From contig CAVOHP010000026.1 in NCBI GenBank assembly GCA_963695715.1, positions 818 through 64,817 on the forward strand: a stretch of 64,000 bases of DNA, in the 5' to 3' direction. Below, in pieces: positions 24,068 through 64,000 of this stretch. Under the pieces are notes generated by a model. The model was not told the origin of the DNA, did no database searches, and was given only the letters and a program-made list of their open reading frames with translations. Origin of the DNA: an uncultured Chloroflexia bacterium (GTDB taxonomy: Bacteria; Chloroflexota; Anaerolineae; CG2-30-64-16). The translations under genes were made by a program, and so were the position numbers. Each line of letters begins with the position of its first letter. The first letter of the stretch is position 1.

Positions 24068-24286
24068 GTGCTTGCTCCTTGTCTTCGAAGTTTCGACATG
24101 GAATATTATACGCTGAAGCAGGGCGGCGGTTGCATCGTGTTTTCGACGGGTGAATGCAATCGTCTGACGACAAATAAATATGTTACAATTTCGAGCGACG
24201 GATCGGGTCGCTCGCCCCGATTTGAGCTTCTGGAGATGACCACTGCAGAAGCGGCTTCCTCGGGATCATGGATTGAGGCAACGCGT

Positions 24287-40595: not shown

Positions 40596-40853
40596 AATTG
40601 ACGGGCGATATGGCCCGATTAAAGTGCGCCGGTTGAGTTCGTTGTGTCAGCAATGGCCGGACATCAGGAAATACCGGGGTCATTGTACCCTTGTGCACGG
40701 CGCTGTGTCAACAAATACACTTCCATGAACATAGACGCTTCTCAAGTTATGGGGGATCGTCGTTGTATGCCCAACAGACATGGCGGCGAGGCGTCGGGGA
40801 CGCTGTAACGCCTCGCCGTATCTGGGATTGCGCGCCCTGCAAGCCTCGGCGAA

Positions 40854-43522: not shown

Positions 43523-43525
43523 CGG

Positions 43526-44920: not shown

Positions 44921-45046
44921 GAATTGTCTCCTCAGTTTCCTGGTGCGCGATTATGACCAACCAACCACGCACCGAATTCACCTGTACCACGGGGCATCGC
45001 CGTCAGGACTGGATGACGTTCCCCGGCTCGTTCATTCACGTTCTGT

Positions 45047-47563: not shown

Positions 47564-48226
47564 TCAGTATGCGCCCTTTCCAAATAACACTGCCGGCAGG
47601 GTCAGAAGCAGGATTTTTATGTCTTGCCAGATATTGCGGGTGCGGATGTACTGGACATTCAGGAGCACGCGATCCGCATAGGGCAGATCGGCGCGTCCCG
47701 ATATTTGCCAGAGTCCGGTGATGCCGGGCCTGACGCTCAGGAGTTCATCGGCATGAGCGCCGAAGCGAACGAGTTCGGGCGGCGAAATCATCCGCGGGCC
47801 GACCATGCTCATCTCGCCGCGTAGCACGTTGCCGAGTTGCGGAAGCTCATCAATGCTGAAACGACGCAACCAATAGCCGACCCGCGTTATACGCGGATCG
47901 GTTTGCAGTTTGCCATCTTGTTGCAGTTGCTCCAGGAGGTCGGGCCGGGCAGCCAGGATCGCGTCGCCGTCTATCCGCATGGTGCGGAACTTGAAGGCGT
48001 CGAATTGGGTTCCGTTGAGACCCAACACACGACGCCGATAAAACACCGGCCCGGCGCTGTCGGTTTTGATGAAGAGCGCGACGAAGGGCAAAAAGGGTAT
48101 CAGGAACAGCAGGCTTAACCCCGAGACGACGATGTCGAGCGCGCGCTTCAGCCCGCGGTCAAAACCGCCGGCCGAGTTTGTCGTGTCTTGGGGCGATAGT
48201 CGATTATCTATCGACGCTTTCTCCAT
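47564..48226 (-). CDS. small monotopic phosphoglycosyl transferase (PglC/WbaP-C-terminal type sugar transferase)
   Basis: Internal Met (48226) of ORF 47564..48487: MEKASIDN...KRALDIVVSGLSLLFLIPFLPFVALFIKTDSAGPVFYRRRVLGLNGTQFDAFKFRTM...DELPQLGNVLRGEMSMVGPR...GITGLWQISGR. Confidence 0.8.
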   Translation of the reverse strand: MEKASIDNRLSPQDTTNSAGGFDRGLKRALDIVVSGLSLLFLIPFLPFVALFIKTDSAGPVFYRRRVLGLNGTQFDAFKFRTMRIDGDAILAARPDLLEQLQQDGKLQTDPRITRVGYWLRRFSIDELPQLGNVLRGEMSMVGPRMISPPELVRFGAHADELLSVRPGITGLWQISGRADLPYADRVLLNVQYIRTRNIWQDIKILLLTLPAVLFGKGAY

Positions 48227-49421
48227 AAATCCCTTCGATACGGGCGGCAATGGCGTCCCACTCGTGATGCGCTTCGACGTACTCTCGGCCTGCCTGCCCG
48301 ATGCGCCTGGCAAGCTCCGGATTCGAGAGCAGATGGACGATCTGCTCAGCGGCCTGGGCGGCGTCATCGAAGATGAGGAGCTGCTCACCCTCGATTGCCG
48401 AAAAGGCCGCCGTGGCGCGCCGCGCGGCGACCACCGGCGTGGCGCAAGCCATGGCTTCGAGAATCTTGTTCTGATTCCCCGCGCCATACACGATGGGCGC
48501 GACGCTCACGGCTGCATGTTGTACATATGAGCGGATATCCGGCACACTCCCCGTGATGGTGACGCGCTCCGGGTATGGCGCTGCTGCTTTGTAAAGCGCG
48601 GGGTCAGGATCTTTCCCCACGATCCACAGGTGGGTATCAGGACGTTTGTACCATACCTGCGGCATGATTGACGAGAGTAAGTGTAGTGCTGCGGTGATAT
48701 TTGCATGATAACTCATTTTGCCGGAAAACACCAGCGCGGAAGGATCACGCGTTTCGATGCCCGGTGTGAAATAGGCGAGGTCTACGCCGTTCGGGACGAC
48801 TTCGACGATTGGGGCGAGCGATGATGCGCGCGACGTGGCGGGTAAAGCCAGCAGGGCTTGCCGATCAATCGCAGATGTGATCAGGGTGCGATCCACACGG
48901 TCGCGCACCAGGGCTTCGAAACGTCTGGTGCGCTCCAGATCAAGACCGGTCAGCAAGCGCCAGCGCGGATTGCTGCTGTTTTTCGCCGCTTGCGCGAACA
49001 GATAGGAGATACAGTCCACGCTGTCCCAGATGACCGGAACCGGGCAGCCGGCCGCTTTGAGCTGCAAGGCATAGCGCGCGCCGCGCAGATGCTCAACGTG
49101 CACGACATCAAATTGGTTGGCGGCCGCGGCTGCGGCCAGATCATCGGCCAACGAAGGGAGCCACGAATAGGCGGCTTGTAACGACATGCCGGACGGCAGC
49201 GCAGCCAGCGCATTCCACATCGGTCGCCAACGGGGGGCGCGCCAGGCCCTTACCTGCGCGCCCAGCGACGCCAGGCGGTCGGCGTCCTGACGCTCGTCCT
49301 CTCCGGTGTATTGCGTGAACACGGTTACCGCATGCCCGCGGTGGAGCAACGCCCGGATGATATTGTAGGGTCGGGCGCGGATCAGATTCGGCACGTAGGG
49401 CACGACAAAGGCGATCCGCAT
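48204..49421 (-). CDS. glycosyltransferase family 4 (GT-B)
   Basis: Intact 405-aa ORF with a C-terminal ...GAGNQNKILEAMACATPVVA EX7E-type region. Confidence 0.8.
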   Translation of the reverse strand: MRIAFVVPYVPNLIRARPYNIIRALLHRGHAVTVFTQYTGEDERQDADRLASLGAQVRAWRAPRWRPMWNALAALPSGMSLQAAYSWLPSLADDLAAAAAANQFDVVHVEHLRGARYALQLKAAGCPVPVIWDSVDCISYLFAQAAKNSSNPRWRLLTGLDLERTRRFEALVRDRVDRTLITSAIDRQALLALPATSRASSLAPIVEVVPNGVDLAYFTPGIETRDPSALVFSGKMSYHANITAALHLLSSIMPQVWYKRPDTHLWIVGKDPDPALYKAAAPYPERVTITGSVPDIRSYVQHAAVSVAPIVYGAGNQNKILEAMACATPVVAARRATAAFSAIEGEQLLIFDDAAQAAEQIVHLLSNPELARRIGQAGREYVEAHHEWDAIAARIEGIYGESVDR

Positions 49422-49473
49422 GGGTTATCGGCTCCCGCGTTCCGTCATGCACGGTTCCCTGAGCGGAAGGAAT

Positions 49474-50859
49474 TCATTGACTCTCGCGATCCATGATGCG
49501 GACCATGGCGATGACCCCGCCGAGGAAAAGCCAACCCAGGTAGGATGATTTGAAGCCCACAAGCCCGACATTGTAGACGAAGGGCAATACCCAATCTCCG
49601 AATATCCCGGCGATCACCATGGCGGCCAATCCTCCGAGGCTGCCATAAATATAGCCGCGCGCAAACCCTTCGGGCGCTCGCGTCCCGGCGAGCCAGCTAA
49701 ACCAACCCATCGAAATCAGAAACCACAGATAGGCCAGAAGCCCCAGGATGCCGGCCTGCGCGACCATGTCTACATATTGATTATGCGAGTTGAACTGAAG
49801 GCCGTAATAGCCCGAGATCGGAAAGAGCGGCGTGTACCAGTAATAATTGGCGGGGCCGAGACCGAGGATCGGGTTTGCTTTGATGATTTCGACCAAGATT
49901 TGCCATGCCTGTACACGGGTGGTGTAGCTGTAGGCATCACCGGACAGGAGATTCTGAAGCGCCTGCGGGGCGAGCAACAGCGCGCCGGCGAGGATCAGAA
50001 GGAAGGTCCAGCGCGAGCGGAGGACGAGGATCACGAGGATACCGGCCAGCGCGGGCAGCCAGCCCGAAACCCAACCGGGCACGCTGACATACACGGCGTA
50101 CACCGCAATTGCGGCCAGTCCAGCGAGGCTGAGCCGCAAAATCGGATGGAGCCGGCGATTGAAAACGGCCTGGCCCAACGCAAGCGCCGGCAACCAGGAG
50201 AAACACTGGCTGCTGATCGAGCCGGGTTCGTAGAGCTGTAGCAGGTAGGGCTTCAAGGGGGGGATCAGAACACCGACGGCGAAAATCGAACCCAGGATGA
50301 GAAAGACGCTGACCAGGGCGATCAATCCGCGCTCGGTTTGCATCTGTTCGGCGGTGACGAAGAAGACGGCGACGGACACGAGCACGAGCGCCAGGCCGCC
50401 AAGTTGTGCGGTCAAGGGCGCCCGTCCTGCCAGGGGCATCCAGTTGCCCTGACCGACGAACAGGGCGACGATAAAGATGCCGGACAGCACCAGAAGGGCG
50501 ATTTGCGGTCTGGTCAGATGCGATGGTCTGCGACTCGGATCGGCAACGATGGTCGCGATCCATAACAGGGTGATGCCGATTGCCCACAGGAACGTGGCGC
50601 TGATTTCCGTGCGCGTGCCGGTGCCGATGCTGAATGGCACGAAGAAGGTGATCGGGATCAGCAGGATGGGACCGAGAGCAGGCCACCGAAGCAGCAGGAG
50701 AGCCACCATGCCCAGGCCCATGACGCCCAGGCCGACCAGGGGAAGCGTGGTAGAACCGCTGAGCGCAACCAGCGCGGCGATCAGCAGCACGGCGAGCGAG
50801 ATCGTGACGGTCGTCAGACGCAATGAAAGGGGCGAGGCGGTCGGCATACGTCGGATCAT
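49474..50859 (-). CDS. O-antigen ligase/polymerase-family (Wzy-like) polytopic membrane protein
   Basis: Intact 461-aa ORF with at least 10 hydrophobic segments and a large loop containing ...GLGPANYYWYTPLFPISGYYGLQFNSHNQYVDMVAQAGILG, typical of Wzy_C proteins. Confidence 0.7.
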   Translation of the reverse strand: MIRRMPTASPLSLRLTTVTISLAVLLIAALVALSGSTTLPLVGLGVMGLGMVALLLLRWPALGPILLIPITFFVPFSIGTGTRTEISATFLWAIGITLLWIATIVADPSRRPSHLTRPQIALLVLSGIFIVALFVGQGNWMPLAGRAPLTAQLGGLALVLVSVAVFFVTAEQMQTERGLIALVSVFLILGSIFAVGVLIPPLKPYLLQLYEPGSISSQCFSWLPALALGQAVFNRRLHPILRLSLAGLAAIAVYAVYVSVPGWVSGWLPALAGILVILVLRSRWTFLLILAGALLLAPQALQNLLSGDAYSYTTRVQAWQILVEIIKANPILGLGPANYYWYTPLFPISGYYGLQFNSHNQYVDMVAQAGILGLLAYLWFLISMGWFSWLAGTRAPEGFARGYIYGSLGGLAAMVIAGIFGDWVLPFVYNVGLVGFKSSYLGWLFLGGVIAMVRIMDRESQ

Positions 50860-52091
50860 CGGCGTAACTCCACGGCGGGATGAGGGTTCGCATCGAGCTG
50901 TCTGACCGGGTATCGATGCTCTTGCGTTGATATGACGGCTTCAACAGGGTCAGGAATTGTGGCGCGATGACCTCCCAATCATAGCGCTGTGCGACCAGGC
51001 GCCCGGCTTCCCCGGTGAGCGATTGCCGGAGGGCAGGATCGCGCAGCAGCCGAACGGCGGCATCGGCGAACTCGACCGGGTCGTCGGCAATCAGCAGATG
51101 CCGGCCGGGTTGCGGCATCGAGACCCTCCGCGCCCTTCGTCGTCGCGATGACCGGAACGCCCAGGGCCATCGCTTCCAGGATTTTCAGGCGTGTGCCGCC
51201 GCCCTGGCGCATGGGCACCACGGCTGCCCACGAGCCGGCGATCAGCGGGCGCACGTCGGGCACAAAACCGGTTCGCGTGATATCGGGCGCAGGCGGCAGC
51301 GGCAGGTCGGCGTGATTGCCGGTGATCGTGAGTCTGGCGGCGGGATACTGGTCCTTGATACGCCCGTAGACTTCACCGACAAACCAGGATGCTGCATCGT
51401 AGTTGGCATGATAGGTGAACGCACCGGTGAAAATGAGGCTCCCCGGTTCGGGCCGGGCGGATATTCCGATGTAGTCGGGGAGATGCACGCCGTTCGGTAT
51501 GACCTCGACGGCGTGGAAATCAGGCGCAAGTGTTGCGCACCAGGTCACGCTCTTGTTGCGATGCGACGGTGGCCGCGGCGTACTGTTCGAGCAGGCGATT
51601 GAGATATCGGCTGTGTTTGGCCCACGTCAGGCCATAGCGCAGCCGGTGGGCGACATCGCTTGCCCCTGCGTATTGGCCGTGCATCAGGCCGAGTTCGATC
51701 TCCTCGAAAAGCGCCGGGTAACCCGCGAAGCAGGGAGCATATACGGCCGTGTCAAACTGGGAAGCGATGACGGCGTCATACGGCGTCTGTCCCAACTCGC
51801 GCTCGATCAGGGAAGCGAATTCGTCAGACCACGTTTCGATGACGGATCGCGGGCGGGGATTGAGCAAGGCCAGACGCGCGCTCATGCGGTTGGGGATGAA
51901 TGGCTTGCGACGCACGACGTGTACGTCGCGGCAAATCGCCCGCAGACCGGCGGCGTCAATCGGCTCGTCCGGTTCGGCAAAGCTGATCAGCGTGACCTCA
52001 TGTTGTGTGGCGAGAATGCGTAGCAAATTGTAGACGCGCAACTTCGAGCCATTGGTCGGCGGGTGGGGAAACCAGCGCGAGAGAAAGAGCA
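50856..52091 (-). CDS. glycosyltransferase family 4 (second copy), about 3 frame changes
   Basis: MSRLLFLSRWFPHPPTNGSKLRVYNLLRILA (ORF 51520..52413, internal Met) joins ORF 50979..51548 (GGTRLKILEAMALGVPVIATTKGAEGL), then the frame of 49937..51118 (LLIADDPVEFADAAVRLLRDPALR). The last residues, ...QLDANPHPAVELRR-stop, end in an ATGA overlap with the Wzy-like start. Confidence 0.7.
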
Positions 52092-52097
52092 GTCGGC

Positions 52098-53006
52098 TCA
52101 TGTCGGGCGCATTCCCCAGCGGCCGCGCAGGAAATCCACCGTGCCTTGCCACAGGGCATCCCGATGCGCGCGCATGTGACGCCAGCGAGGTTTGATTGTC
52201 CAGCTTGTGAGCGTACGTATGGTTTGAAACCAGGCTCCGGCCCAGGCTGCGGGCGGGGCATGATGAAGCGACATCATCAAGAAGTGATTCCGGGTATTGT
52301 AGTAGGTGACGGATGGGCCGGGCTGATAGTTGCGCTGAACGCCTTTGTGCCAGAGGCGCGCCCCGGGTTCCAGCACGATCTTCCAGCCGTGGCGAGTCGC
52401 CCGGACGCACCACTCGGTTTCTTCAAAGTAGTAGAAAAAGCGTTCATCGAGCGCGCCGAACTCGCGAATGGCGGCGGCGCGCGCCAGGAGGGCGCAACCG
52501 GAAAGCGCAGGCGTCTCGTGCGCCAGGGCAAACTGACCGCAATCGGGTTCATTCTTCCCGAGATGCCGGGAATCCCAGGCGCGGTTCAGCGTGACGCCGG
52601 CAGACTGGATGATCTCCGGTTCATCGTAGTGGAGCACCAATGGGCCGACAAACGCGATGCGCGGGTCGCTCTCGCCGGCGGCAACCAGACGCTCGATGCA
52701 TTCGGGAGCCAATACGGTGTCTTCGTTAAGCACCAGCACCCAGTCGGCGCCCTCTTGCAGCGCCGCAGCGATGCCGACGTTGTTATTTCCGGCGTAGCCT
52801 TTGTTCTCTTCGATGGCGATGATGCGAACATCAGGGTGGGCGGCCCGGATGGCTTCAACAGAGCCATCGGTCGAGGCGTTGTCCAGCACGATCGTCGAGA
52901 AATTCCGATAGGTGTTGCGCTCGAGTGACGCAAGACAGGCCAGGGTGTCCTCACGCCGGTTGGTATTGAGGATCACGACCGTGACACGCGGGTTCATTCC
53001 AGCCAT
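52098..53006 (-). CDS. glycosyltransferase family 2
   Basis: Intact 302-aa ORF with VTVVILNTNRREDTLACLASL, VLDNASTDGS and LVLNEDTV (DxD-type). Confidence 0.85.
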   Translation of the reverse strand: MAGMNPRVTVVILNTNRREDTLACLASLERNTYRNFSTIVLDNASTDGSVEAIRAAHPDVRIIAIEENKGYAGNNNVGIAAALQEGADWVLVLNEDTVLAPECIERLVAAGESDPRIAFVGPLVLHYDEPEIIQSAGVTLNRAWDSRHLGKNEPDCGQFALAHETPALSGCALLARAAAIREFGALDERFFYYFEETEWCVRATRHGWKIVLEPGARLWHKGVQRNYQPGPSVTYYNTRNHFLMMSLHHAPPAAWAGAWFQTIRTLTSWTIKPRWRHMRAHRDALWQGTVDFLRGRWGMRPT

Positions 53007-53990
53007 GCCGGAGGCAAATTACGCATGATCTCGATGTCCTCGAAGCGGCGACCGGTGCGCGCGCCATACGTGCGCACCCATTGCGCCATGCGCTGCAACC
53101 CTTCCTCCAATGAATAACGCGGCTTGACGCCGAAGACATTGCTGAGCTTGGCGTGCGAGGAATATGCGTCCTGCACTTCGTTGCGCGCCGGCAGGTGGGT
53201 GATCTTGCGGCGCAACGCCCATCGCGCCGGCCACGGCTTCGGCCAGGGCGTTCACGCTGTATGCCTGGTCGGCCCCGATGTTGAAGACCTGATTATAGGC
53301 GGCGGGCGTCTCGGCGGCGGCGGCGATGATGGGCGCGACATCGCCGATGTAGCTGAAGGCGCGCGTCTGTGTACCGTCGCCGAACACCGTCATCGGGTGA
53401 CCTTGCAGGATCTGATTCATGAAGATGCCCACGACGTTGCGATAGCGGTCGCCGATGTTCTGGCGTTCACCGTAGACGTTGTGGGGACGGAATATGACAT
53501 AGTCCAGGCCAAACATGCGCCGGCTGGCCTCCAACTCCTGTTCGACGGCGAGCTTGGCAATGCCGTAAGGGTCTTCGGGGTGTGGCGGCGTTTCCTCGGT
53601 CATGGGCAGTTGCGGACTGGCGCCGTAGACGGCGATCGAGGAGGTGAAGATGAAGCCCCGCGTACCGTGATTGATGGCGGCGTTGATGAGGTTGACGCTG
53701 CCCATCAGGTTGTTCTGATAGTTGAATCGTTTGATGAAGTGGCTCAGGCCCTCGGCAGCGTATGCGGCCAGGTGGTAGACATAATCAAAATGATATTCAT
53801 CGAACAGGCTTTCGATCAGCGACACGTCGTTGATATTGCCCGTGACGAGACGCGCGTCGCCGGGTACGTTGTCCGCAAATCCGCCGCTCAGGTCATCGAG
53901 GACGACCACCCGATGGTCGCGGGCCAACAGCTCTTCGGCTACGTGCGACCCGATGAATCCTGCCCCACCCGTCACCAATGTCGTCGGCAT
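52994..53990 (-). CDS. NAD-dependent sugar-nucleotide epimerase/dehydratase, one frame change (about 53215)
   Basis: MPTTLVTGGAGFIGSHV, YGIAKLAVE (YxxxK) in ORF 53019..54005. The tail RRKITHLPARNEVQDAYSSHAKL...RNLPPAWLE is in ORF 52994..53215. Confidence 0.8.
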
Positions 53991-53997
53991 GTTGTCC

Positions 53998-55108
53998 TCA
54001 CCCAAAGATATAACGATAGTAACGGTTGGCCGGTGTTCGGCTTACCAACCACATCAGGCCGAGCGGGACGGCCAATCCGACGGCGATCAGGAGCGGCTGT
54101 AAGATGATCTGGTGGCCGAGCAGGGCCGGTACAAAGTGATACAGGGCGCGGGCGAAATACTCCATGCCGATCATATGAATCAGGTAGATGCCATAGGTGC
54201 GCCCGCCCAGCCATTCGACGGAACGGGCGAACGGCAGCGCAGTCTGGCTTACGGCGAGAATCGCAAGGATGAATGCGGCGGAGTAGAGGACATCTACGAA
54301 GGTTTCGCGATGGGCCAACCATTCCGATGACCGCCGGGCCATCCACTCCCATTCGATCATGCCGACCGGTATGAGGACAAGCGCTGCGCCGATCAGCCAG
54401 ACTCTGGATTTGTCGAGAAATCCCTTGAGGGCGGGAAGATGGAAGCCGGCGACGATACCGCTCGAAAATGCGAAGATCCGTGTGATGAAGAGCCATTTCG
54501 GAACCAATTGCCCCAGGGCAATCAGTTGCGGGTTCTGCGCGCCAAGCAGAAGCGGATAGTAAGAGAGCATGACGGCGAGCTGGATCAGCCCTGTGACCAC
54601 GAGCAGCGTGACGGGCTTTTTGCGGGCGATGGGAATCAGGAACGGCGCCAGCAGATAGAGTTGGATCAGCAGCGGGACGTAGTAATACGCCGGACTGATG
54701 CTGCCGGTGAGATACATCTGTACGAAGCCGATTGGCCCGGGGCGACGGCCTTGCACGAAGGCGAGGGCAAACAGCACGAGCGTCCACAGGGTGTAGGGGA
54801 TGAGCAGGCTCTTGATGCGCGGCGAAGACGGAACTCCATGCCACGGTGCGTTGGGCGCGGCCGGTTGCGAAGGCCACGAAGAAGCCCGATATGAACATGA
54901 AGGCGGGAATCGCGAAGACGCTGATTTGCTCCTCGGCGCGCAGGAGCCAGTAGGACAGGCTGCCCGTCGGATCGGCGCTCGCGAGGTTGGCTGCGTCTGT
55001 ATAGCGATGCGCCCACGCGAACATGGCGACGAACCCCAGGCCGGCGGCATGGAAGATGATGACGGCGAAGATGGCGAGTCCGCTCAGATAAAGTAATCGT
55101 CGAACCAT
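53998..55108 (-). CDS. acyltransferase-3 (AT3) family membrane O-acyltransferase, copy A, one frame change (about 54850)
   Basis: MVRRLLYLSGLAIFAVIIFHAAG...FMFISGFFVAF (ORF 53972..55108) joins RIKSLLIPYTLW...YGIYLIHMIG...RYYRYIFG (ORF 53998..55050). Confidence 0.8.
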
Positions 55109-55168
55109 GCTCGGGCCTTTCAGCGATGTTGGCGGCGATGATGAAGGATGACGATGGCGTTAAGACGT

Positions 55169-55414
55169 CTATTGAAGTTGGCTGAGGTAATCGGAGAGCG
55201 CCCTGACGCTCTTGAAATTCTCATAGGTTACATCTTCATCCGGGACGCGAAGCCCGAAACGCTCGTCTACGAAGGCGACGATCTGGAGGATGCCCAGCGA
55301 GTCAATCGTGCCGTTTGCGAGCAGGTCGTCATCGGGTGAGATGGTTGATTTGCGGTCGCGGATGAGATCGTTCTTGATGTAGTCCATGAGGATGGTCTCG
55401 GTGCCTTGAGTCAT
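55169..55414 (-). CDS. 81-aa acyl/peptidyl carrier protein (DltC-like)
   Basis: Internal Met of ORF 55169..55504: MTQGTETILMDYIKNDLI...DDDLLANGTIDSLGILQIVAFVDERFG. DSLG is the phosphopantetheine-Ser context. Confidence 0.8.
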   Translation of the reverse strand: MTQGTETILMDYIKNDLIRDRKSTISPDDDLLANGTIDSLGILQIVAFVDERFGLRVPDEDVTYENFKSVRALSDYLSQLQ

Positions 55415-55449
55415 TGTCGGTTTGCTCCTTTGTGATTGGATGACGGCGT

Positions 55450-56626
55450 TTAGCCGAAGAGATAACGATAATAGCGCCGGAACGGCGAATGGTCTACCAG
55501 CCACATCAGCCCCAGCGGGGTGATCAAGGCGGCGGCAAACAACAGCGGCTGCAACAAAAGCTGGTGCGGCAGCAGGCCCGGCAGCAGGCGACTGATGGCT
55601 TTTGCCGCCAGGATGATGCCCAGCGTGTGGACGAGGTAAATCCCGAAGGAGCGCACGCCCAACTTCTGCAGCGCATCGGCCACGCGGGGCGCCAGCGCGC
55701 CGCCGCCGAGAAAGGCGAGGATGATCGCCCCGGAAAAGAGTTCATCGGTAAGGGTGCGAAACTGACCGGCCCATGGGGTCGGCGTCGCGCGGACCACAGC
55801 TTCCCATTCTACCATGCCGGCGATTAACAGGACAGGTATGGCGATCAAGGCGATGCGATGCACCCGGTCTATCCAGGCGCGGAAGGGCGCGACATGGGTC
55901 CCTGCCACGATGCCGGTCGCAAACCACAAACACAGACCGGGGAAGAACCATGCCGGGGTCAGCCATGCCAGCGCGGACGTCAGTGCGCCGGTAGGGGCCA
56001 GTTCTTTGAGATAGATCGCGAACATTGCCGTCAGTTGCAGGATCAGCGCCGCGATCAGCAACCACTTCCAGCGCCGTTGCGCCAGTAAGACCATAAACGG
56101 CGCCAGCAAGTAGTATTGGATGAGGAGCGGTATGTAATAGAATCCCGCAGCGGCGCCGCCGAAGGCAATCCGGCGCGCGTAGGAGATCGGCGCGTAGACC
56201 GACCCCAGCGCCGCATCCAGGCCGAGATAGAATGCAGACCATAGCAGATATGGGATCACCAACATCTTGATCCGGCTGCCGACGATGCTCCAGACGCCGG
56301 CGTTGGACGCCGTCTGCGCCGTCAGCCCCAGACGCTGCCGACGAGCGCGCCGTTTGTTGTTTCGGCGCGTGGACGGCGCGGCTCAGGGCGAAGGCTGCAA
56401 AGTAGCCCGACACGAAGAGAAATGCCGGCACCGCGAAGGCGGCAAGGCCCTCGCCGGTGCGTAATAGCCAGTAATCGAAGCTGCCCACGGCGTCGAAGTT
56501 CGGCGCGGCGACGGCGCGATATCGGTCCGCCCACCAGATGAGGGCAATGAACCCCCATCCTACGGTGTGGTTGAGCACGACGCCGAGGATCGCCAGTCCG
56601 TTGAGCAGCAGCAGGCGTCGAACCAT
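55450..56626 (-). CDS. acyltransferase-3 (AT3) family membrane O-acyltransferase, copy B (paralogue of copy A), at least 1 frame change (about 56350)
   Basis: MVRRLLLLNGLAILGVVLNHTVG...FLFVSGYFAAF (ORF 55742..56626) joins SRIKMLVIPYLLW...FGIYLVHTLG...RYYRYLFG (ORF 55450..56265). Confidence 0.8.
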
Positions 56627-56635
56627 TTGCTCTGC

Positions 56636-57902
56636 TCAGTCAATCGGGACTGTTGACAATTGGCTCTTGAAGATGTGGTTGTCGGAGGCTTCCACGGCCT
56701 TGATATAATTGCGCATGGCGTCCAACACCGGTACATCCTTTCGATCGAACACGATTCCCTGGAGCAACTCCTTGATTTGCGTATTGTACTCTTCAGATTG
56801 AACGAAATGCGTGAAGAGGGGCAACAGCTTATAGTAGAGCCGGATGAACTCATACCAGACGCTGACACCGGACCGAATCTTCTCCTCGTACGGGCTGAAC
56901 GTTGCAGCCGAGAAGTCTGCCTGTCTGGAAGGCACAGCGAATGCTGTCCTGTAGCGAACCGGGCGCTCATCATCGCAACACTGACGCCCGAAGAGAAGAT
57001 CGGATCTACGAAGCGCGCGGCGTCGCCGACCAGCATCCAGCCGTCGCCCACGAAGTGTCTGCATCTTGTAGCTGTAGTCGCCCTCGGTCTTGAACTCGTT
57101 GATGCGCTCGGCGGGCGCAAGTGCGCGGGCCAGGGCCGGATTCGATCCAATATAGGTGTTGAAGTATCCTTCCACATCTTTGCGCGCCTGTCGGAACACC
57201 TCGCGCTCGGCGACGATGCCCACCGATGTGATCTCGTCGGTGATCGGGATCTGCCATGCCCAGCCCCGGTCTACGGGGAGGAAGTGGATGTGGATATAGT
57301 CGGCGGTTTCGCTATCACCGCGATCCAAGCCTCTTGTACCAGGCATGTACTGCGTACTGGTCGAAGATGGGATCATTATCCTTGATCGTGAGCTGGCGGC
57401 CAAGCAGTGTGTGCCGACCACTGCAATCTACGACGATCTTGGCGTGCAAGTCGAACTCGGCTTCGGCCACCTGGGCACGGACGCCTACGGCCTGGCTGCC
57501 ATCGAACAATACCTGCTTGACACGCACGCCCTGGTATACCTTGGAGCCGAGCTTTTCGGCATGCTTCGTCAAGAGGTGATCGAACTTGCTGCGGTCAACA
57601 TGGTAGATATAGTCGCGATCTATGCCGTGCTTGGGGAATGCGCTGAAGGGGATGGCGAACTCTTTGCCGCTGAAGGCGTGCCAGGCTGCGCCATACTTCC
57701 GAACGAACCCCATTTCTTCCATGGTGTCGAGGAAGCCGATTTCCTTGAACGGAATGTAGGTGGACGTCACGAGGGATTCGCCGACATGAGGGCGTGGATG
57801 ATTGGCCTGCTCCAGGATGACGTTGTCTATGCCGGCCAGAGAGAGATAACTGCCCAGGGTAGCGCCGGCCGGCCCGCTGCCGATGATGATCACATCGCTC
57901 AT
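56636..57902 (-). CDS. FAD-dependent halogenase-like oxidoreductase (GxGxxG plus WxWxIP), 3 frame changes
   Basis: MSDVIIIGSGPAGATLG, PRPHVGESLV (ORF 57315..57902); DRGWAWQIPI (ORF 56636..57421); HFVGDGWMLVGDAARFVDPIFSSGV (frame of 56560..57177); then back to the 56636..57421 frame to the stop. Shifts at about 57335, 57060 and 56940. Confidence 0.7.
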
Positions 57903-58031
57903 TTTCCAAAAACCTCCAATAGATGGTCGCCGGTGTACCGGGCAACCGTGAAATGCCGTTCGCCGCTGGCGCTGCGAAGGGCATCAATCCGAACAGGGAG
58001 CGATGATGAGAGCGATGCAATGGATGGGTTT

Positions 58032-59608
58032 TCATGATTTTGATTGATCGGCGAGCGTGCGGCGGTCAATCTTGCCGGTGGATGTGCGCGGGAACTCCGC
58101 GACGATCGCGATGCGCGCCGGGATGGCATACCAGGGCAGGCGGCCGCCCAGATGCTCGGCCAGGTCGTCGGCCGTGGGCGCCGCGCCGTCTTTGGCGGTC
58201 ACGGCCGCGTAGATCAGATTGGCGCCTTCTCCTTCCTGGTCGGGCATTGCGTAGACGGCTGCTTCCTGAACTCCTTCGTGGCTCAATAGCGCGACCTCGA
58301 TTTCGTCCAGCTCGACGCGATAACCGCGTGTTTTGATCTGGCGGTCCTGGCGCCCCAGGAATTTGAGGTTGCCGTCCGGCATCTCCAGCACCAGGTCGCC
58401 CGTGCGATAGTAAGGCTCGGTATAGCCGGGGTGGAACGCCTGATGAAAGAAGCCGCGCTCGGTCAGCTCGGGGCGGCCCCAGTAGCCGCGCATGACGATC
58501 GGGCCGCGAATCAGCAACTCGCCCGGCGAACCGGGGGCGACCGGCTGATTTTCGGAGTCCACGATCAGCGCGTCGGCGTTGGCGCAGGCGACGCCGATGG
58601 AGATCGGTTCGTCGGTGTCATCGGGCACGGCGTTCACATGATAGTATGTGCAGACGTTGGTCTCCGTTGGGCCGTAGAGGTTGCTGAAACGGACGTGCGG
58701 CAGGGCGGCCATCAATTGGCGCAAGTACTTGGTCGGGAATACTTCGCCCGCGAAGAGCAGCCAGCGCAAGTCCGTCAGGTCGCGCGTTCCGATGTTGCCG
58801 CGCAGGAGCATCTGCGTCAGGGCGAACGGCACGGAATACCAGACGCTGATGCGCTCATCCTGCATCAGTTTGGAGACGCTGGCGGGGAAACGCGTCACGG
58901 CCTCGGGGATGATGACGGTCGTCGCCCCGGCCAGGGCGCCCGCGAACAGATCGAAGGTGGACAGGTCGAAGTGCAGCGGCGCATGATTGCTGAGGCGATC
59001 TATCGAGCGCAGGCTGTACTCATCGGCGGCCCAGCGCGCGAAGGCCAGGGCGCTGCGATGCGTGTGCATGATCCCTTTGGGGTCGCCGGTCGAGCCGGAC
59101 GTGTAGAGGATGTAGGCCAGGTCTTGCTCGATTGTGCGCGTTTCGGGCAGGGCGGCGGGCGCTGCAGCGACATCGGCCCAACTTGCCGTGCGCACAGGCC
59201 AGGCTATCCTGCGCCGATACGCCGATGATTTGCGCCAGGTCCGGGGCCAATGTCGAGCATCTGGCGGAGTTGCTCGGCCTTGTCATCCCGGCTGATGAGG
59301 CAGCGTATGCCGCAGTCACGGATGACGAACGCAAGGCGCGCCACGGGCGCGAACGGGTCGAGCGGCACGTAGGCCGCACCGGCCAGCATGATGCCATATA
59401 AGGCGATGACCGATTCCAGGCTCTTGTTCATGTAGATGCCGACCCGGTCGCCGCGGGCAACGCCATTCTCGGCCAGGAAGCGGGCCAGTTGCGCGGCGCG
59501 CTCGGCCAGGGCTGCGTAGGTCAGACCGACGCCTGCGAAGCGGATGGCCTCGTGGTCTGGTGAGCGTCCGGCGGCTTCGGTGATCGCGTGCGAAAGCAGA
59601 TAGATCAT
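58032..59608 (-). CDS. stand-alone NRPS-type adenylation enzyme (DltA-like amino acid--carrier protein ligase), 2 frame changes (about 59235 and 59195)
   Basis: ORF 59204..59608 (LTYAALAERAAQLA), then ORF 58032..59195 with core motifs LAYILYTSGSTGDPKG, HFDLSTFDLF, NLYGPTETN, GELLIRGPIVMRGYWG, YRTGDL, GRQDRQIKTRGYRVELDEIE, LPWYAIP, TGKIDRR. Confidence 0.85.
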
Positions 59609-59690
59609 CCCATTCCTCGAGAAGAGAGTAAGATCGGCTCTTGATGGCTACTCTGAGCTGATGGCGCCGTCCGTGGCCTGGATGTTGTCG

Positions 59691-60980
59691 TCACAATACC
59701 GATTCCTCGGCGCCGGGCGATGCGGACACCAGTTGCAAGGATTGCCCCGGGAGCAGCCACCTGATCATGGGAGCAGACAGTAATGAAGTGGCGATGGCCA
59801 TGATCACCACCGTAACAAATATCCGCTCGTCAATGATGGCATAGGCTAGACCAATGCCGGCCAGGATGATTCCCGTCGCGCCGCGAGCGTTCAGCCCAAA
59901 TGCGATCGCCCATACCTCGCGGTGAGCGGCATGCCGGCGAGCCGTGCACCCAAGATGACCCCTCCGACCTTGCTGATACATGCAACGACAAATACCACCA
60001 GCACCTGGGCCAGGTCAAAATTCACGGCGAAGTTGACCGTGAGACCCATGGAGACGAAATAGATTGGGGCAAAGAAGCTCAGCGCAAAATGGGAGATCAC
60101 GTCGTGTGCTTCGTTCGTCTCGCCGTTGTGCCCGCCTAATGCGATGCCAACCAGGAAGGCGCCCAGGAAAGCATGCACTGCCCAGGACTTCCGCGAAATG
60201 CTTCCCACGACCAGGATGAGCAGCGTTGTCAGAGCGATGAAGCCGCTCGGCCAGGGCAAGCGTTGTCTGGCAAAATGCAGGGCGCGCGGCCCCAAACACG
60301 CGCCCAGCCACCAGGACTATGACGACGAACAGGACGATTACCCCGAGGCCCAGTGAGAGGCTGGACACGGTCGTGTCTACAGGAGACACCTGACGCAGGA
60401 TCATCGCAAATAGGGTCCAGTTGATCAAGTCATCGAAGATGGTAGCCGTCATGACGACCGTCGCCGATGTGCTCCTTGAGCAGACCGAGATCCATCAGGA
60501 TTCGAGCAATCACGGGTTGGCGGAGTTCGCCAGGTTCAGCCCCAGAAACAGCGCGAAGGCAAAGAACTGTCCCTGGACACCCGGCCCCCAGAACGTGCTG
60601 GGCATCAGCGTAGGCCAGGCCCAGGCCGGCAACAATCGGAATGATTGTTCCGACCAGGCCGATGGAAGTGGCCTGCGGACCGAGCCGGCGGATATCGGAT
60701 TGAGATCCACCTCAAGGCCGGCGATGAAGAGAAAGAACATCATCCCGAGCTTGATCGTCAGCATCGCGCACGACAGTGACGTTGGCGGATGAGTGAAACA
60801 GCCAGTTATACGAAGCAGGCGCCAGCGCGCCGAAGATCGTTGGCCCAGGATAATGCCGCCAATCATCTCGCCTAGTACGGCCGGTTGTCCGAGCTTGCGC
60901 ATGATCTGCCCGCACATCAGACGCCACGCCAGCATCGCAGCGATCTGGAGAGCGAACAACACGAAGTCGTGGGAACTCAC
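59691..60980 (-). pseudogene. cation:proton antiporter (CPA2/Kef-NapA type), at least 8 frame changes; genuine decay or a local assembly problem
   Basis: Fragments appear in all three frames in the order expected for one protein. They are LGQPAVLGEMIGGIILG, PTIFGALAPASYNWLF, LTIKLGMMFFLFIAGLEVDLN, RRLGPQATSIGLVGTIIPIVAGLGLAY, FFAFALFLGLNLANSA, PVIARILMDLGLLKEHIG, TATIFDDLINWTLFAMIL, VHAFLGAFLVGIALG, FFAPIYFVSMGL and AIAFGLNARGATGIILAGIGL. Confidence 0.6.
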
Positions 60981-61026
60981 TTATACGATCCCTCGATCAG
61001 AGATTTCGTTGACGCCTGATCGTTCA

Positions 61027-62172
61027 CTAAAGTCCTAACAGGCGAGCAATGATGTTGCGCTGGATATCGGAGGTGCCCGAGTAGAGCGTGCCGCCGATGG
61101 CGTCGCGCAAATCGCGCTCCACCTCGAACTCGGTCATATAACCGTAGCCGCCATGAATGCGGATGGCGTCGAGGCTGGACTGGACGAAGGCTTCGCTGAT
61201 GTAGAGCTTGGCCAGGGCTGCGTCCATCGGCGCAGGCTTTTCCAGCTTCTTTTGCCACGCGACCCGGTAGAGGATGAGACGGGCCGTTTCGAGGCGCACC
61301 TTCATGTCCGCAATGCGGTTGGCGACCGATTGGAACTTGCCGATCGGTTGGCCGAACTGTTCGCGCTCGCGTGCGTATTGGATGCATTCCTCCAGTTGCC
61401 GCTCCATCGCGCCGACGTGACTACCCAGGATGCACGCCCGCTCCCACTCCATCGAGTGATTGAAGATGCGCGTGCCGATGCCTTCCGCGCCGAGGCGATT
61501 CTCTTCGGGGACCAGGCAATCTTCGAGGATCACTTCGCCCATCGGGGCGGTGCGCAACCCCATTTTGTGCAGGTCGCGGCTGACGGTCAGGCCGGGGGTG
61601 TCGCGTTCGACGATGAACCCGGTGACGCCCCACATGCCCTTGCCGGGGTCTACCGTGGCGAAGATGATCGCCAGATCCGCCACGGGCGCGTTGGTCACGA
61701 ACATCTTGCTGCCGTTCAGGACATAGCCGCCGTCGCGGCGCTCGGCGCGCGTGTGCAGGCTATAGGCGTCTGAGCCGGAGTCGGGTTCGGACATACCGTG
61801 CATTCCTATCAGATCGCCGTTGCAGAGGCCGGGCAGGTATTTGCGCTTCTGCGCCTCGGACCCGAAGGCGAGGATCGGCATCTGGACGCTCCAGAGTTGG
61901 GCGTTCATCGCGAAGATGAGGCCGTTGTCCCGGCTACCGTAACCCAGACCCTCCATGGTGAGCATGGTGGTGAGGATGTCTTCCCCGGCGCCGCCATACG
62001 CTTCAGGGATGGGCAAGCCGAGGATGCCGAAGCGGGCGCACTTACGCCAGTTCTCCAGCGAGAACGCGCCTTCCTGGTCGCGTTCGATCAGCCCTTCATT
62101 CAGCTCTTTGCGGGCAAACTCAATGACGGCTTTCTTGTATGCGAGTTGTTCGTCTGTCCAGGAGAAATCCAT
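61027..62172 (-). CDS. acyl-CoA dehydrogenase-family flavoprotein
   Basis: Intact 381-aa ORF with MDFSWTDEQLAYKKAVIEFA, GMSEPDSGSD, FVTNAP and a C-terminal ...YSGTSDIQRNIIARLLGL. Confidence 0.85.
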   Translation of the reverse strand: MDFSWTDEQLAYKKAVIEFARKELNEGLIERDQEGAFSLENWRKCARFGILGLPIPEAYGGAGEDILTTMLTMEGLGYGSRDNGLIFAMNAQLWSVQMPILAFGSEAQKRKYLPGLCNGDLIGMHGMSEPDSGSDAYSLHTRAERRDGGYVLNGSKMFVTNAPVADLAIIFATVDPGKGMWGVTGFIVERDTPGLTVSRDLHKMGLRTAPMGEVILEDCLVPEENRLGAEGIGTRIFNHSMEWERACILGSHVGAMERQLEECIQYAREREQFGQPIGKFQSVANRIADMKVRLETARLILYRVAWQKKLEKPAPMDAALAKLYISEAFVQSSLDAIRIHGGYGYMTEFEVERDLRDAIGGTLYSGTSDIQRNIIARLLGL

Positions 62173-62274
62173 AGCACTCTTTCCGTTGTGTTTATGCCCC
62201 CGGGGCTGCGGGCATGGGATCCAATTGAGCCGTCCCGACGCGCCAGTGGCGACCGTATATCAGGTAACTCACTG

Positions 62275-63464
62275 CTACCTTGCCCTGAACCACGGGGCAG
62301 CCGTGGTGTCCGTCATGAAGAAGCTCATGAGCATATCTGCGACTTTGCGCGCGCCGGCGGGCGACGGATGGGTGCAGTCTTGCTCCATATCCGGCCCCTT
62401 CCAGGTTTGCCCGTCTGCCCTGGGGTTTTCGCCGTCAATCCAGAGATACGGCCCCCAGGTGATGTAGGGCGCACGCACTGCGCCCAGCTTCGGGTCGAAG
62501 TTGAGCGCCGGGTCATTCCGAAGCTGTCTTTCGATTAACCACTTAACGGCGAAGCCGGTTTCGTAGGCAATCGGTTCGGGACTCAGCCCGCGGAAGTAGG
62601 TATAGGAGCGCGTCCGGCTGGAGAAGTAGATCATCTTCAGGTTGGGGAACTCGGCCAGCAGGTTGTGCGTGATGTCTTCCAGCGCTTTTTCCAACTCTTC
62701 GGCTTTCTGCGGGGAACGTCCCGGCCGCGGGTCAGGGTTTGCTTGACCCAGGCGACCTGGACCTGTTCCGGTGTGACTTTGCGGTGTTTCAGGCGGGCGA
62801 GCAACTCCGGCCAGGGTCGCCCGTTCGGATCGGCCCATTTTTCGGCGGTCTGGCCGGCGAGCGCGCCGTTGATGATCACGAGGTTCGGATTCAGGTCCTT
62901 GCGTTCTTTGGCCATTCGCTCGAACTGACCGAACTCGATGGATGTGTTGGACATGCCCACGGAGATGAAGACGACCTTGCCGTTGGGATCGGGTCGGCCC
63001 TGGGCGTCGAGCGGCTGAATCTGCTTCGCGGCGGCCAGCCCGGCGGCTTCGTGGGCGGGGGGTCGCACGTTGGACCCACCCGGATAGAGGCCGCCCGTGA
63101 AGCCGGTGGGGCCGCCTTCCATGCGGACGTATTCGGATTTGCCCAGCTCGGTCAACGGCCTGGCGACGGGCTTGAAAGGTTCGGCGCACGTCGCGCTCTT
63201 GTCGCGTGTCGGTTGAGGGGGTCGTGTCGGGCGCGGGGGTGGGGTGGGGCGAGCGACCCGCGTCGGTTGGGTCTGAACCGCACGCTGCGCGAGCCGCGTG
63301 GGGGTCGCCTTGTATCCCATCGTCGCGCCGTTAACGTCACGCGCGCTGACCAGAACGGACGAAAGCCCGGTGATGGTAAGCGTGACGAGGATCACGACGA
63401 TCATCATGAGCGGCGTCCGTTGGCGTCGCGGCTTGGAAGTATTGCCCTTCATGTTCTTATCCAT
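62275..63464 (-). CDS. signal-anchored SGNH-like hydrolase/acyltransferase-fold protein, one frame change (about 62700)
   Basis: ORF 62637..63464 has an N-terminal TM (PLMMIVVILVTLTITGLSSVLV), a Pro-rich linker, and VVFISVGMSNT as a candidate block I Ser. ORF 62275..63189 has DCTHPSPAG as a candidate block V DxxH. Confidence 0.5.
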
Positions 63465-63493
63465 CTATTTCTGGTCAAGAAACCAGCTTTTCG

Positions 63494-64000
63494 TCAGGAG
63501 TCTGTGACGTGGAATGCCATCAGCATATCTGCCACGGCGTCAATGCCCAGGGGCGACGGGTGGGTGCAATCCTGGGGTGAGATTCGCACCGGTCCACGAC
63601 CAACCGTCGGCACGCGGGTTCTGGCCGTCAATCCACAAATAGGGTCCCCACGAAAGGTAGGGGGCCGCGACGGGGCCGACTGTCTCATCGTAGTTCAGCG
63701 CCGGGTCACCATTGATTTGCTGTTCGATCAACCACTTGACGGCGAAGCCCGTTTCGTACGCAGATGGTTCGGGACTCAGGCCGCGATAGATGTTGTATGA
63801 ACGCGTGCGGCTGGACAGGAAGACGATCTTGAGATTCGGGAAGCGCGCGTGCAGCAGGTGGATGATGGTCGTGAGGTCGCCCTGGAGTTGAAGCGCCTGG
63901 TCGGGGAACGCGCCGCCCGTAGCGTAGGTCAGCTTGATCCAGACGACCTGAACCTGTGCGTTTGTAAGATGCCTCCTGCTCAACTCCGTATCCAGCGTCG
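63494..64000 (-). CDS. paralogue of the SGNH-like protein (5' end beyond the window), one frame change (about 63600)
   Basis: ORF 63540..63983 (FPNLKIVFLSSRTRSYNIYRGLSPEPSAYETGFAVKWLIEQQ) plus ORF 63494..63688 (QDCTHPSPLGIDAVADMLMAFHVTDS). It is colinear with 62275-62750 at the protein level and partly at the DNA level. Confidence 0.5.

Follow-up and report, generated by a model that had tools for sequence, protein, structure and literature searches.

What are enzymes that resemble those of halopyrrole natural-product pathways doing inside a gene cluster for a bacterial surface polysaccharide? The question is raised by positions 53,998 to 64,000 of a stretch of 64,000 nucleotides (hereafter the window) from an uncultured Chloroflexia bacterium (GTDB lineage Bacteria; Chloroflexota; Anaerolineae; CG2-30-64-16; assembly GCA_963695715.1, contig CAVOHP010000026.1, positions 818 to 64,817 of the forward strand). 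A first-pass annotation had recognized there a cassette of six minus-strand genes, coding for a flavoprotein of the acyl-CoA (coenzyme A) dehydrogenase family, a stand-alone adenylation enzyme, a halogenase, a small carrier protein and two membrane acyltransferases of the AT3 family. These genes, their coordinates and their strand are all correct, as judged from the list of open reading frames and from Pfam, and the genes are indeed co-directional and tightly spaced, with intergenic gaps of -8 to about 130 nucleotides; what had been passed over is the interval 59609-61026, which holds a further gene, for a CPA2-family cation/proton antiporter-like protein (59691-60980). With moderate confidence, our analysis leads us to see in the cassette a thiotemplated pathway for a (halo)pyrrole-2-carboxyl group, coupled to a machinery that acylates the surface glycan.

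The substrate of the adenylation enzyme was analysed by extracting the ten Stachelhaus positions by motif register, with the GrsA-PheA sequence, checked against its known code residues, as the reference for the numbering. The resulting specificity code, DLFYLALVCK, is identical at 9 of 10 positions to that of PltF, the L-proline:PltL ligase (6o6e), which is also the best single-domain match of the enzyme among PDB structures; in the printed alignment PltF reads DLLYLALVC, while DLFYIAWVC is found in another prolyl ligase of solved structure (7thn). The string DL[F/L]YLALVCK recurs in every cassette adenylation enzyme of at least 30 fetched loci, actinomycete pyrrole clusters included. Also, a profile of the pocket region scores 175 bits against PltF and 89 against DltA, the top non-prolyl match reaching at most 93 bits. 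Since both the code and the pocket-profile scores match PltF over DltA, proline rather than D-alanine is taken as the substrate, which settles the comparison of codes that had been proposed for this enzyme; D-alanine and tyrosine are ruled out by the code and by the scores against DltA and PltF. The enzyme also matches TIGR03098 (exosortase/PEP-CTERM acyl-CoA ligase) with 318 bits, under the cut-off of 592. As to the carrier, the Bmp1 carrier domain (6cxt_A) and PltL are among its PDB matches, and an identical protein is present on two further metagenome contigs.

The two flavoproteins point in the same direction. Among PDB structures the dehydrogenase matches AnaB (4irn) with 478 bits (2e-142), Bmp3 (6cxt) with 363 and PigA (5zw0) with 327, the best ordinary acyl-CoA dehydrogenase scoring 292 bits, and its top two NCBIfam matches are PigA (454 bits) and RedW (422 bits), which fall under the equivalog cut-offs of 500 and 650. 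The enzyme thus ranks with the prolyl-carrier oxidases over the acyl-CoA dehydrogenases, and a role in fatty-acid or primary metabolism is ruled out by these rankings. AnaB, from anatoxin-a biosynthesis, is its closest solved relative, ahead of PigA and Bmp3; it may be that the starter module for anatoxin in cyanobacteria originated from this family of cassettes, which is widespread.

For the halogenase, the PDB scores are highest with the carrier-dependent pyrrole enzymes PltA (409 bits, 1.8e-121) and Mpy16 (394 bits) and with ChlB4 (388 bits), and fall to about 160-190 bits with Bmp2, CndH and CmlS, to 76 with geranylgeranyl reductase and to 33 with tryptophan halogenase; the last two assignments are excluded by these values. 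Across 31 relatives the GxGxxG motif, the Lys of R/K-K-[FY]-G-A-A-W and the motif W-x-W-x-I-P are invariant, the invariant residues including K69, W214, W216, I218 and P219, and the window enzyme, once corrected for frameshifts (see below), keeps GxGxxG, R-K-Y-G-A-A-W and G-W-A-W-Q-I-P. The sequence of loading, oxidation and halogenation on the carrier that had been suggested from the logic of (chloro)pyrrolyl-S-carrier formation is therefore backed by the homology of all four cytoplasmic parts, and the formation of a (halo)pyrrole-2-carboxyl group from L-proline is a well-supported prediction.

A more delicate issue is how the acyl group would leave the carrier. The two window AT3 proteins match Acyl_transf_3 (PF01757) with 3e-15 and 2.5e-18. 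According to a review of this family (PMC9558356), the motifs R/K-X10-H and RxxR are essential and are proposed to bind acyl-CoA, and acyl-CoA, not an acyl carrier protein, is argued to be the physiological donor. In the window, the R/K of the first motif is replaced by Asn in one protein (AT3a) and by Ser in the other (AT3b), and a dibasic pair is found five residues upstream of this position in the cassette AT3s. In the first transmembrane helix (TM1), 27 of the 28 cassette AT3s of the fetched loci in which the motif is seen have the common pattern RR-x4-N-G-x9-H, the lone S being a spurious match within a truncated open reading frame. In a subfamily drawn from the AT3 genes of loci L003-L024, L055 and L086-L090 (relatives' loci are numbered with the prefix L) and from the window, the TM1 histidine H20 is invariant in 26 members; R118, within S-R-I-K and before a conserved Pro, is invariant as well and is at most a candidate for an RxxR arginine. 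These N/S-X10-H proteins form a subfamily, which may be adapted to a protein-bound donor.

The gene neighbourhood bears on the same point. Within the window the carrier gene sits between the two AT3 genes. Five look-ups were seeded with AT3 homologues at 40-43% identity, independently of the halogenase, and in all five the genes directly beside the AT3 gene encode AMP-binding and PP-binding proteins. Two of these loci (L087 and L089) have the adenylation enzyme, carrier and AT3 alone, with a different code, DYYPTTMRVK, at L087; a third (L088) adds the dehydrogenase and has no halogenase; and L086 combines an adenylation enzyme of the proline code with two AT3s and another flavin halogenase (34% identity), without a dehydrogenase. 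In the complete Chloroflexota genome L003, halogenase, carrier and AT3 stand isolated among unrelated genes; at L007 and L011 a halogenase-AT3-carrier unit is followed by a second unit of distant halogenase, carrier and AT3; and at L009, L010 and L018 the order is adenylation enzyme-carrier-AT3-halogenase-AT3-AT3. There thus looks to be a general module of adenylation enzyme, carrier and AT3, and this neighbourhood argues for an acyl-S-carrier, instead of acyl-CoA, as the putative donor of these AT3s.

Upstream of the dehydrogenase lie two paralogous genes, for SGNH-A and SGNH-B, which had been described as signal-anchored SGNH-like proteins, a description that the family motifs and the predicted fold confirm. 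Neither protein has a Pfam or NCBIfam match, and the family profile reaches merely E=0.027 in the PDB, to a GDSL-like protein. The family comprises 1409 detectable homologues, nearly all of them unnamed. In the family alignment G-x-S-N and D-x-x-H are invariant and an Asn is conserved, which corresponds to SGNH blocks I, V and III, respectively. In SGNH-B, an N-terminal signal anchor is joined by a linker rich in Pro to the catalytic domain, which has the Ser (GMSNT), the Asn and D-x-x-H, and SGNH-A keeps the block V as D-C-T-H-P. An AlphaFold2 model of a relative that is 91% identical to the L001 protein (mean predicted local distance difference test score, pLDDT, 90; predicted template-modelling score, pTM, 0.90) matches in Foldseek searches of the PDB the structures of PatB (7tlv), YxiM, a sialate esterase, an acetylxylan esterase, the SGNH domain of OafB (6se1) and the C-domain of OatA, with probability 1.00, E values of 6e-6 to 8e-4 and TM scores of 0.36-0.59. 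Elsewhere in the family, the Acidimicrobiia proteins carry an extra C-terminal membrane anchor, and those of Calditrichaceae have an apparent type IX secretion (T9SS) tail, to judge from the tail of this type on a beta-helix protein encoded nearby. Given the motifs, the predicted fold and the signal or membrane anchors, the SGNH-like proteins are best viewed as probable surface-exposed enzymes of the glycan acyl-transfer kind.

The setting of the cassette suggests the acceptor. Directly downstream and on the same strand, glycan genes run from 39483 to 54005, among them an epimerase, glycosyltransferases, Wzy_C, Bac_transf and Wzz, so that the cassette belongs to a cluster for a surface polysaccharide of the Wzy type that extends over at least 25 kb. 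Within it, the GHMP kinase and the SIS/NTP_transferase fusion (43526-47563) look, from their families, like a GDP-heptose route. The same GDP-heptose-type gene families are found beside the adenylation enzyme-carrier-AT3 triad of L089.

This arrangement is not a peculiarity of the window. More than 4,000 proteins are related to the halogenase at E<=1e-5, the best 120 of them with 62-81% identity, and a scan with one genome per species gave 80 loci. Halogenases 52-67% identical to the query occur in Chloroflexota (mostly Anaerolineae), Acidimicrobiia, Acidobacteriota, Verrucomicrobiota, Gemmatimonadota, Myxococcota, Planctomycetota, Calditrichota and others; actinomycete natural-product halogenases follow at about 48%. 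Among themselves, the cassette halogenases are 57-81% identical across phyla, and they are only about 48-50% identical to actinomycete cassette enzymes. A Litorilinea aerophila protein is found among the matches of both the halogenase and the SGNH-like family, and cultured relatives may carry the cassette. Neighbours were counted at 68 loci by clustering the open reading frames within 8 kb of the halogenase and naming them by Pfam: the most frequent are the carrier (39 loci), the adenylation enzyme (31) and the dehydrogenase (30), followed by GT4 (18), epimerase (17), AT3 (15, in 29 copies), CPA2 (14), the GDSL/SGNH family (13), the SGNH-like family of the window (12), GT2 (12), Wzy (10) and sulfotransferase (7). 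A membrane or SGNH partner, be it AT3 or an alternative, is found at 37 of the 68.

The block is kept beside glycan genes in relatives, as the synteny search proposed in the first-pass annotation now reveals. Seven Anaerolineae (L005, L010, L013, L018, L020, L022 and L055) share the order GT4-GT4-GT2-GT4-[dehydrogenase or CPA2]-adenylation enzyme-carrier-halogenase-AT3-AT3-epimerase-GT2-sulfotransferase-GT4-Wzy-GT2, and two further loci, L001 and L090, have the order of the window, dehydrogenase-adenylation enzyme-halogenase-AT3-carrier-AT3; in at least nine genomes the cassette is placed in the middle of the glycan cluster and not at its edge. Glycan gene families like those at 39483-54005 border the cassette in the Anaerolineae loci. 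Because the gene block recurs in relatives of several phyla, with variants in at least six, its grouping goes beyond chance.

From these observations a route can be proposed. By close homology, the adenylation enzyme would activate L-proline and load it on the 81-residue carrier, the flavoprotein with the acyl-CoA dehydrogenase fold would oxidize the prolyl-S-carrier, most likely to the pyrrolyl-2-carboxyl-S-carrier, and the PltA-type FADH2-dependent halogenase would chlorinate or brominate the tethered pyrrole, the CPA2 transporter possibly being an accessory of this halogenation step. The transfer across the membrane and onto the glycan is, in turn, inferred from gene neighbourhood, motifs and fold: the two AT3s would accept the acyl group from its thioester on the carrier, and not from acyl-CoA, and deliver it to the membrane's outer side, where it would be esterified onto the Wzy-dependent, probably heptose-containing polysaccharide of the neighbouring locus, either directly or via a Ser-His-Asp acyl-enzyme of the SGNH fold, as in PatB, OatA and OafB. 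The presence of two AT3s and two SGNH proteins may mean that there are two acylation sites.

A number of facts weigh against this proposal. AnaB reportedly halts after a two-electron oxidation, at the pyrroline, and the formation of a pyrrole by the window dehydrogenase is therefore uncertain; the oxidation most likely does proceed to the pyrrole, on the basis of the PltA-type halogenase, which needs a pyrrole. At 15 of the 68 halogenase loci none of the partners is seen. Within 8 kb, the seven conserved Anaerolineae clusters have AT3s and lack any SGNH-like gene, in Acidimicrobiia it is the SGNH-like genes that are present and AT3 that is absent, and the two kinds of gene are found together only in the window, L001 and L024; as they mostly occur apart, a relay from AT3 to SGNH protein is not universal. 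Consequently, of the AT3-plus-SGNH logic put forward initially, the presence of both components in the window holds, and a fixed pair does not. Furthermore, the characterised AT3s all use acyl-CoA and none is known to work with a carrier protein (PMC9558356). Finally, the cassette has many frameshifts, and if these are real it is dead in this organism.

Among the other explanations, the one that best survives, although we regard it as unlikely, is that a halopyrrole is made but its acceptor is something other than the adjacent polysaccharide, for instance a membrane lipid or a glycolipid, the peptidoglycan, some protein or a small glycoside, or that the halopyrrole is freed, like the tetrabromopyrrole from Bmp1-4. 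The halogenase-carrier-AT3 group of L003, which has no glycan gene at all, would fit such a scheme, as would the fact that glycan genes lie within 8 kb at merely 29 of the 68 halogenase loci, the pairing of the cassette with a lipid-A-type acyltransferase of PF03279 at some loci, and the ability of AT3s to acylate antibiotics and Nod factors besides polymers (PMC9558356). Against this explanation, the cassette has no thioesterase, condensation, polyketide synthase (PKS) or nonribosomal peptide synthetase (NRPS) gene and its carrier is a bare 81-residue protein; its mid-cluster position in the nine or more genomes mentioned above, together with the extracytoplasmic SGNH partners, whose predicted fold is closest to glycan O-acyltransferases, also speaks for a glycan.

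We consider it improbable that the AT3s and SGNH proteins are ordinary acetyl-CoA-dependent glycan O-acetyltransferases which happen to lie beside an unrelated halopyrrole cassette. Stand-alone AT3s are common in O-antigen and exopolysaccharide (EPS) clusters, and the acyl-CoA dependence of all the characterised enzymes would be in line with this view. On the other hand, AT3, carrier and halogenase genes are interleaved in the window as well as at L009, L010 and L018; L007 and L011 have two copies of the whole unit, and at L003 the three are alone together; all five AT3-seeded look-ups have adenylation enzyme and carrier adjacent; and no member of the subfamily retains the R/K of the CoA-binding motif.

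The frameshifts were evaluated by frameshift-aware protein-to-DNA alignment, mainly against the products of L001 (GCA_038214535.1), the nearest relative found, which has 81-91% DNA identity to the window; the close relatives are all Chloroflexota. Compared with the L001 DNA, almost all breaks are single-base insertions in the window. The adenylation enzyme requires two corrections (+1 at 59239 and +1 at 59202; 87% identity to L001), the halogenase four (+1 at 57332, 57058, 56943 and 56924; 78%), AT3a one (+1 at 56332; 84%), SGNH-B one (+2 at about 62722; 82% identity to the 387-residue L001 protein) and SGNH-A two (+1 at 63575 and -1 at 63498; 85% identity to residues 180-355 of the 355-residue L001 protein). 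AT3b requires one (+1 at 54820), with the window's own reconstruction as alignment query, and this insertion is missing from two independent relatives, L001 and L085. The dehydrogenase (96% identity) and the carrier (98%) require none. In total there are about 21 corrections over 10 kb, about 11 outside the CPA2 gene and about 10 in it, and after correction there are zero in-frame stops over about 3,300 codons. Far outside the cassette, the same kind of break divides the gene of a GH2 glycoside hydrolase into two overlapping open reading frames, 23786-24934 and 24861-26651 on the plus strand, which hold the N-terminal domains and the TIM barrel. Since this hydrolase is split alike and the insertion at 54820 is absent in two relatives, the indels are most likely assembly noise, the CPA2 gene excepted. 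That the cassette is a decaying remnant with real frameshifts, its product absent in this organism, is accordingly very improbable: the number of corrections, the share of them in the CPA2 gene and the loss of that gene by L001 are what such decay would leave, but the prevalence of single-base insertions, the stop-free corrected frames, the intact dehydrogenase and carrier and the like damage in the GH2 gene are not.

The CPA2 gene deserves separate consideration. It needs its ten or so corrections within 1.24 kb, and the corrected product is stop-free and 52% identical to the homologue of L010; its homologues match Pfam Na_H_Exchanger and TIGR00932 CPA2. A homologue is present within a few kb of the halogenase at 20 of 83 loci (L008-L010, L015, L018, L028-L034, L037, L046, L075, L077, L079, L080, L082 and L083), with identities of 47-57% among Anaerolineales, a metagenome-assembled genome (MAG) of Cytophagia and Chthoniobacterales. 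In the Chthoniobacterales loci a second, distant halogenase is the sole other conserved neighbour, and the CPA2-bearing Verrucomicrobia loci are without carrier, adenylation enzyme and dehydrogenase. At 32-42% identity, CPA2 proteins are also encoded beside the halogenases of natural-product-type actinomycete loci (L075, L077, L079, L080, L082 and L083). As the gene recurs beside halogenases across phyla, these actinomycete loci included, it is the halogenase that it tracks, and not the genes for the glycan; our guess is that the transporter serves to supply ions or halide. Similar transporters may belong to halogenated glycopeptide clusters, a parallel for which the literature search gave no confirmation.

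Variation among the relatives is considerable. Loci without AT3 may encode proteins of about 970 residues, with about 13 predicted transmembrane segments and a C-terminal GDSL/SGNH domain, together with secreted GDSL paralogues of 370 residues; the transmembrane part of the larger proteins has no Pfam or NCBIfam match. Other loci without AT3 carry an AlgX-like SGNH protein or an acyltransferase of the LpxL/AlmG type, and in Acidobacteriota and Calditrichaceae it is a PF03279 (AlmG/LpxL family) gene that adjoins halogenase, dehydrogenase and carrier, which suggests a lipid or lipopolysaccharide acceptor in these lineages. In Acidimicrobiia, a protein of about 300 residues and 7-8 transmembrane segments, of no known family, is encoded directly upstream of SGNH-like protein, halogenase and carrier, and is a candidate for the membrane partner where AT3 is absent. 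The other neighbours in Acidimicrobiia (Suf-type ABC and aminotransferase, luciferase-like and metallo-beta-lactamase genes) are apparently unrelated housekeeping genes. At L009, L010 and L018, from Bellilinea and relatives, the cassette has three AT3s, and a CPA2 gene stands where the dehydrogenase would be expected. Genes for asparagine-synthase-like (AsnB-like) amidotransferases recur at cluster edges, recalling exosortase EPS loci, and at L087 one is fused to an adenylation enzyme, beside the carrier. As for other elements of the window, a simple scan of the cassette gave no promoter-like or terminator-like signals above chance, and tRNA and Rfam scans of the window gave no match. The features are collected in Table 1.

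Table 1. Features of the cassette, of the glycan genes of the window and of selected relatives' loci.
Feature	Position	Strand	Basis or remark
SGNH-fold secreted protein (SGNH-A)	63465-64000	-	3' part only (last 176 codons); runs off window end
SGNH-fold protein with N-terminal signal anchor (SGNH-B)	62275-63464	-	family motifs and AlphaFold2/Foldseek
Predicted prolyl-S-carrier dehydrogenase, intact	61027-62172	-	Pfam Acyl-CoA_dh_N/M/1
CPA2-family cation/proton antiporter-like membrane protein, heavily frameshifted	59691-60980	-	homologues: Na_H_Exchanger, TIGR00932
Stand-alone adenylation enzyme, predicted L-proline:carrier ligase	58032-59608	-	AMP-binding and AMP-binding_C
FADH2-dependent halogenase, PltA/Mpy16 clade	56636-57902	-	FAD_binding_3, Trp_halogenase
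AT3 membrane acyltransferase a (N-X10-H)	55450-56626	-	Pfam Acyl_transf_3
Carrier protein of 81 residues, intact, serine in IDSLG	55169-55414	-	Pfam PP-binding (PF00550)
AT3 membrane acyltransferase b (S-X10-H)	53998-55108	-	Pfam Acyl_transf_3
Epimerase	53019-54005	-	Pfam
GT2	52098-53006	-	Pfam
Wzy_C polymerase	49474-50859	-	Pfam
GT4	48204-49421	-	Pfam
Bac_transf initiating transferase	47564-48487	-	Pfam
GHMP kinase	46490-47563	-	Pfam
Bac_transf+CoA_binding_3	45047-46348	-	Pfam
SIS (GmhA-like)+NTP_transferase fusion	43526-44920	-	Pfam
Wzz/GNVR	39483-40595	-	Pfam
Transmembrane-GDSL proteins and paralogues	L023 3814-6732, 6806-7930; L024 6728-9628; L050 3095-7146; L060 4200-7118; L071 3338-6746		
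PF03279 lipid-A-type acyltransferase	L038 14220-15164; L044 14268-15284; L071 11286-12299		
Protein of about 300 residues with 7-8 transmembrane segments	L039 7467-8420; L040 7406-8329; L058 6073-6978; L059 7459-8355		
AsnB-like genes	L001 1-233; starts of L005, L013 and L055; L086 3802-5802; L087 2354-6892; L090 15037-15116		

How does the cassette compare with characterised systems? The set of proline ligase, carrier, oxidase of the acyl-CoA dehydrogenase fold and FADH2-dependent halogenase is that of PltF/PltL/PltE/PltA in pyoluteorin and of Bmp4/Bmp1/Bmp3/Bmp2 in bromopyrrole biosynthesis, and PigI/PigG/PigA and RedM/RedO/RedW (prodiginines) and AnaC/AnaD/AnaB (anatoxin) belong to the same class of thiotemplated pyrrole cassettes. 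Unlike these, the window cassette is without a downstream PKS, NRPS or thioesterase, lies among AT3 and SGNH genes inside a glycan cluster of the Wzy type, and is hosted not by the classic producers but by uncultured Chloroflexota, Acidimicrobiia, Acidobacteriota and Verrucomicrobiota. In clorobiocin and coumermycin biosynthesis (CloN1/N2/N7 and CouN1/N2/N7) a carrier-bound (methyl)pyrrole-2-carboxyl group is esterified to the 3'-OH of noviose, so that there, as would be the case here, a carrier-bound pyrrole acid ends as an ester on a sugar hydroxyl; those systems, however, act on a small cytoplasmic antibiotic with soluble transferases, whereas in the window AT3 membrane proteins and secreted SGNH proteins are the candidates, and a polymer outside the membrane is the presumable acceptor.

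On the envelope side, the combination of an AT3 with a TM1 histidine and an extracytoplasmic SGNH fold is reminiscent of OatA, OafA/OafB, PatA/PatB and AlgI/AlgJ/AlgX. In contrast with the AT3-SGNH enzymes, the two functions are here in separate genes, which are not always paired in relatives; and in contrast with OatA, OafA and OafB, the R/K-X10-H motif has N or S, the putative donor is an acyl-S-carrier and the predicted acyl group an aromatic heterocycle. With DltABCD the cassette shares an adenylation enzyme, a small carrier, a polytopic membrane acyltransferase, an SGNH-like partner and an envelope polymer, and in this sense of a shared logic the designation Dlt-like that it had received is apt. 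It is not apt as a statement of membership: the ligase is of the PltF type according to the pocket profile, with no DltA-type ligase in the cassette, and Pfam shows AT3 and no DltB MBOAT; in addition, the window cassette has on-carrier tailoring steps that DltABCD lacks. AlmEFG adds glycine to the lipid A of Vibrio cholerae in a carrier-dependent manner, and both this system and the TIGR03098 loci resemble the cassette in that a surface glycoconjugate of Gram-negative bacteria is modified with an acyl or aminoacyl group by way of a carrier protein; the window is, however, without the PF03279 (AlmG) gene, which the relatives L038, L044 and L071 do have. As a whole system, the cassette belongs to none of OatA/OafB, PatA/PatB, DltABCD and AlmEFG.

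The component families are thus known, and it is their combination and the proposed donor that are new. Full-text literature searching, with subscription journals mostly outside its coverage, found nothing on such a cassette, on a pyrrole-acylated polysaccharide or on a carrier-dependent AT3, and the earlier remark that no polysaccharide is known with such a decoration is thereby matched. Tentatively, and as a wider claim of which we are less certain than of the assignment of the window cassette itself, we propose a class of carrier-fed AT3 (or transmembrane-GDSL) acylation systems in abundant uncultured phyla of soil, sediment and wastewater (among them Chloroflexota, Acidobacteriota, Acidimicrobiia, Verrucomicrobiota, Gemmatimonadota and Calditrichota); a widespread type within this class would decorate surface polysaccharides covalently with chloro- or bromopyrrole-2-carboxylate.

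If this is true, a halogenated aromatic heterocycle on a bacterial surface polysaccharide would be a new glycan decoration, with likely effects on surface hydrophobicity, on resistance to phages or grazers, or on antimicrobial contact activity. The AT3 family would gain an acyl-S-carrier donor beyond acyl-CoA, and natural-product thiotemplate chemistry would be joined to envelope tailoring, as Dlt and AlmEFG do for amino acids. Also, a survey of ocean MAGs counts PltA/Mpy16-like halogenases as natural-product enzymes (bioRxiv 10.1101/2025.05.17.654656), and the PltA-like halogenases of metagenomes would have to be reread, the more than 4,000 close relatives in this clade being often accompanied by envelope-acylation genes. 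The host bacteria would then be producers of polymer-bound organohalogens, and the macromolecule-bound organohalogen pool that this suggests would matter for organohalide respirers and for the cycling of chlorine in nature.

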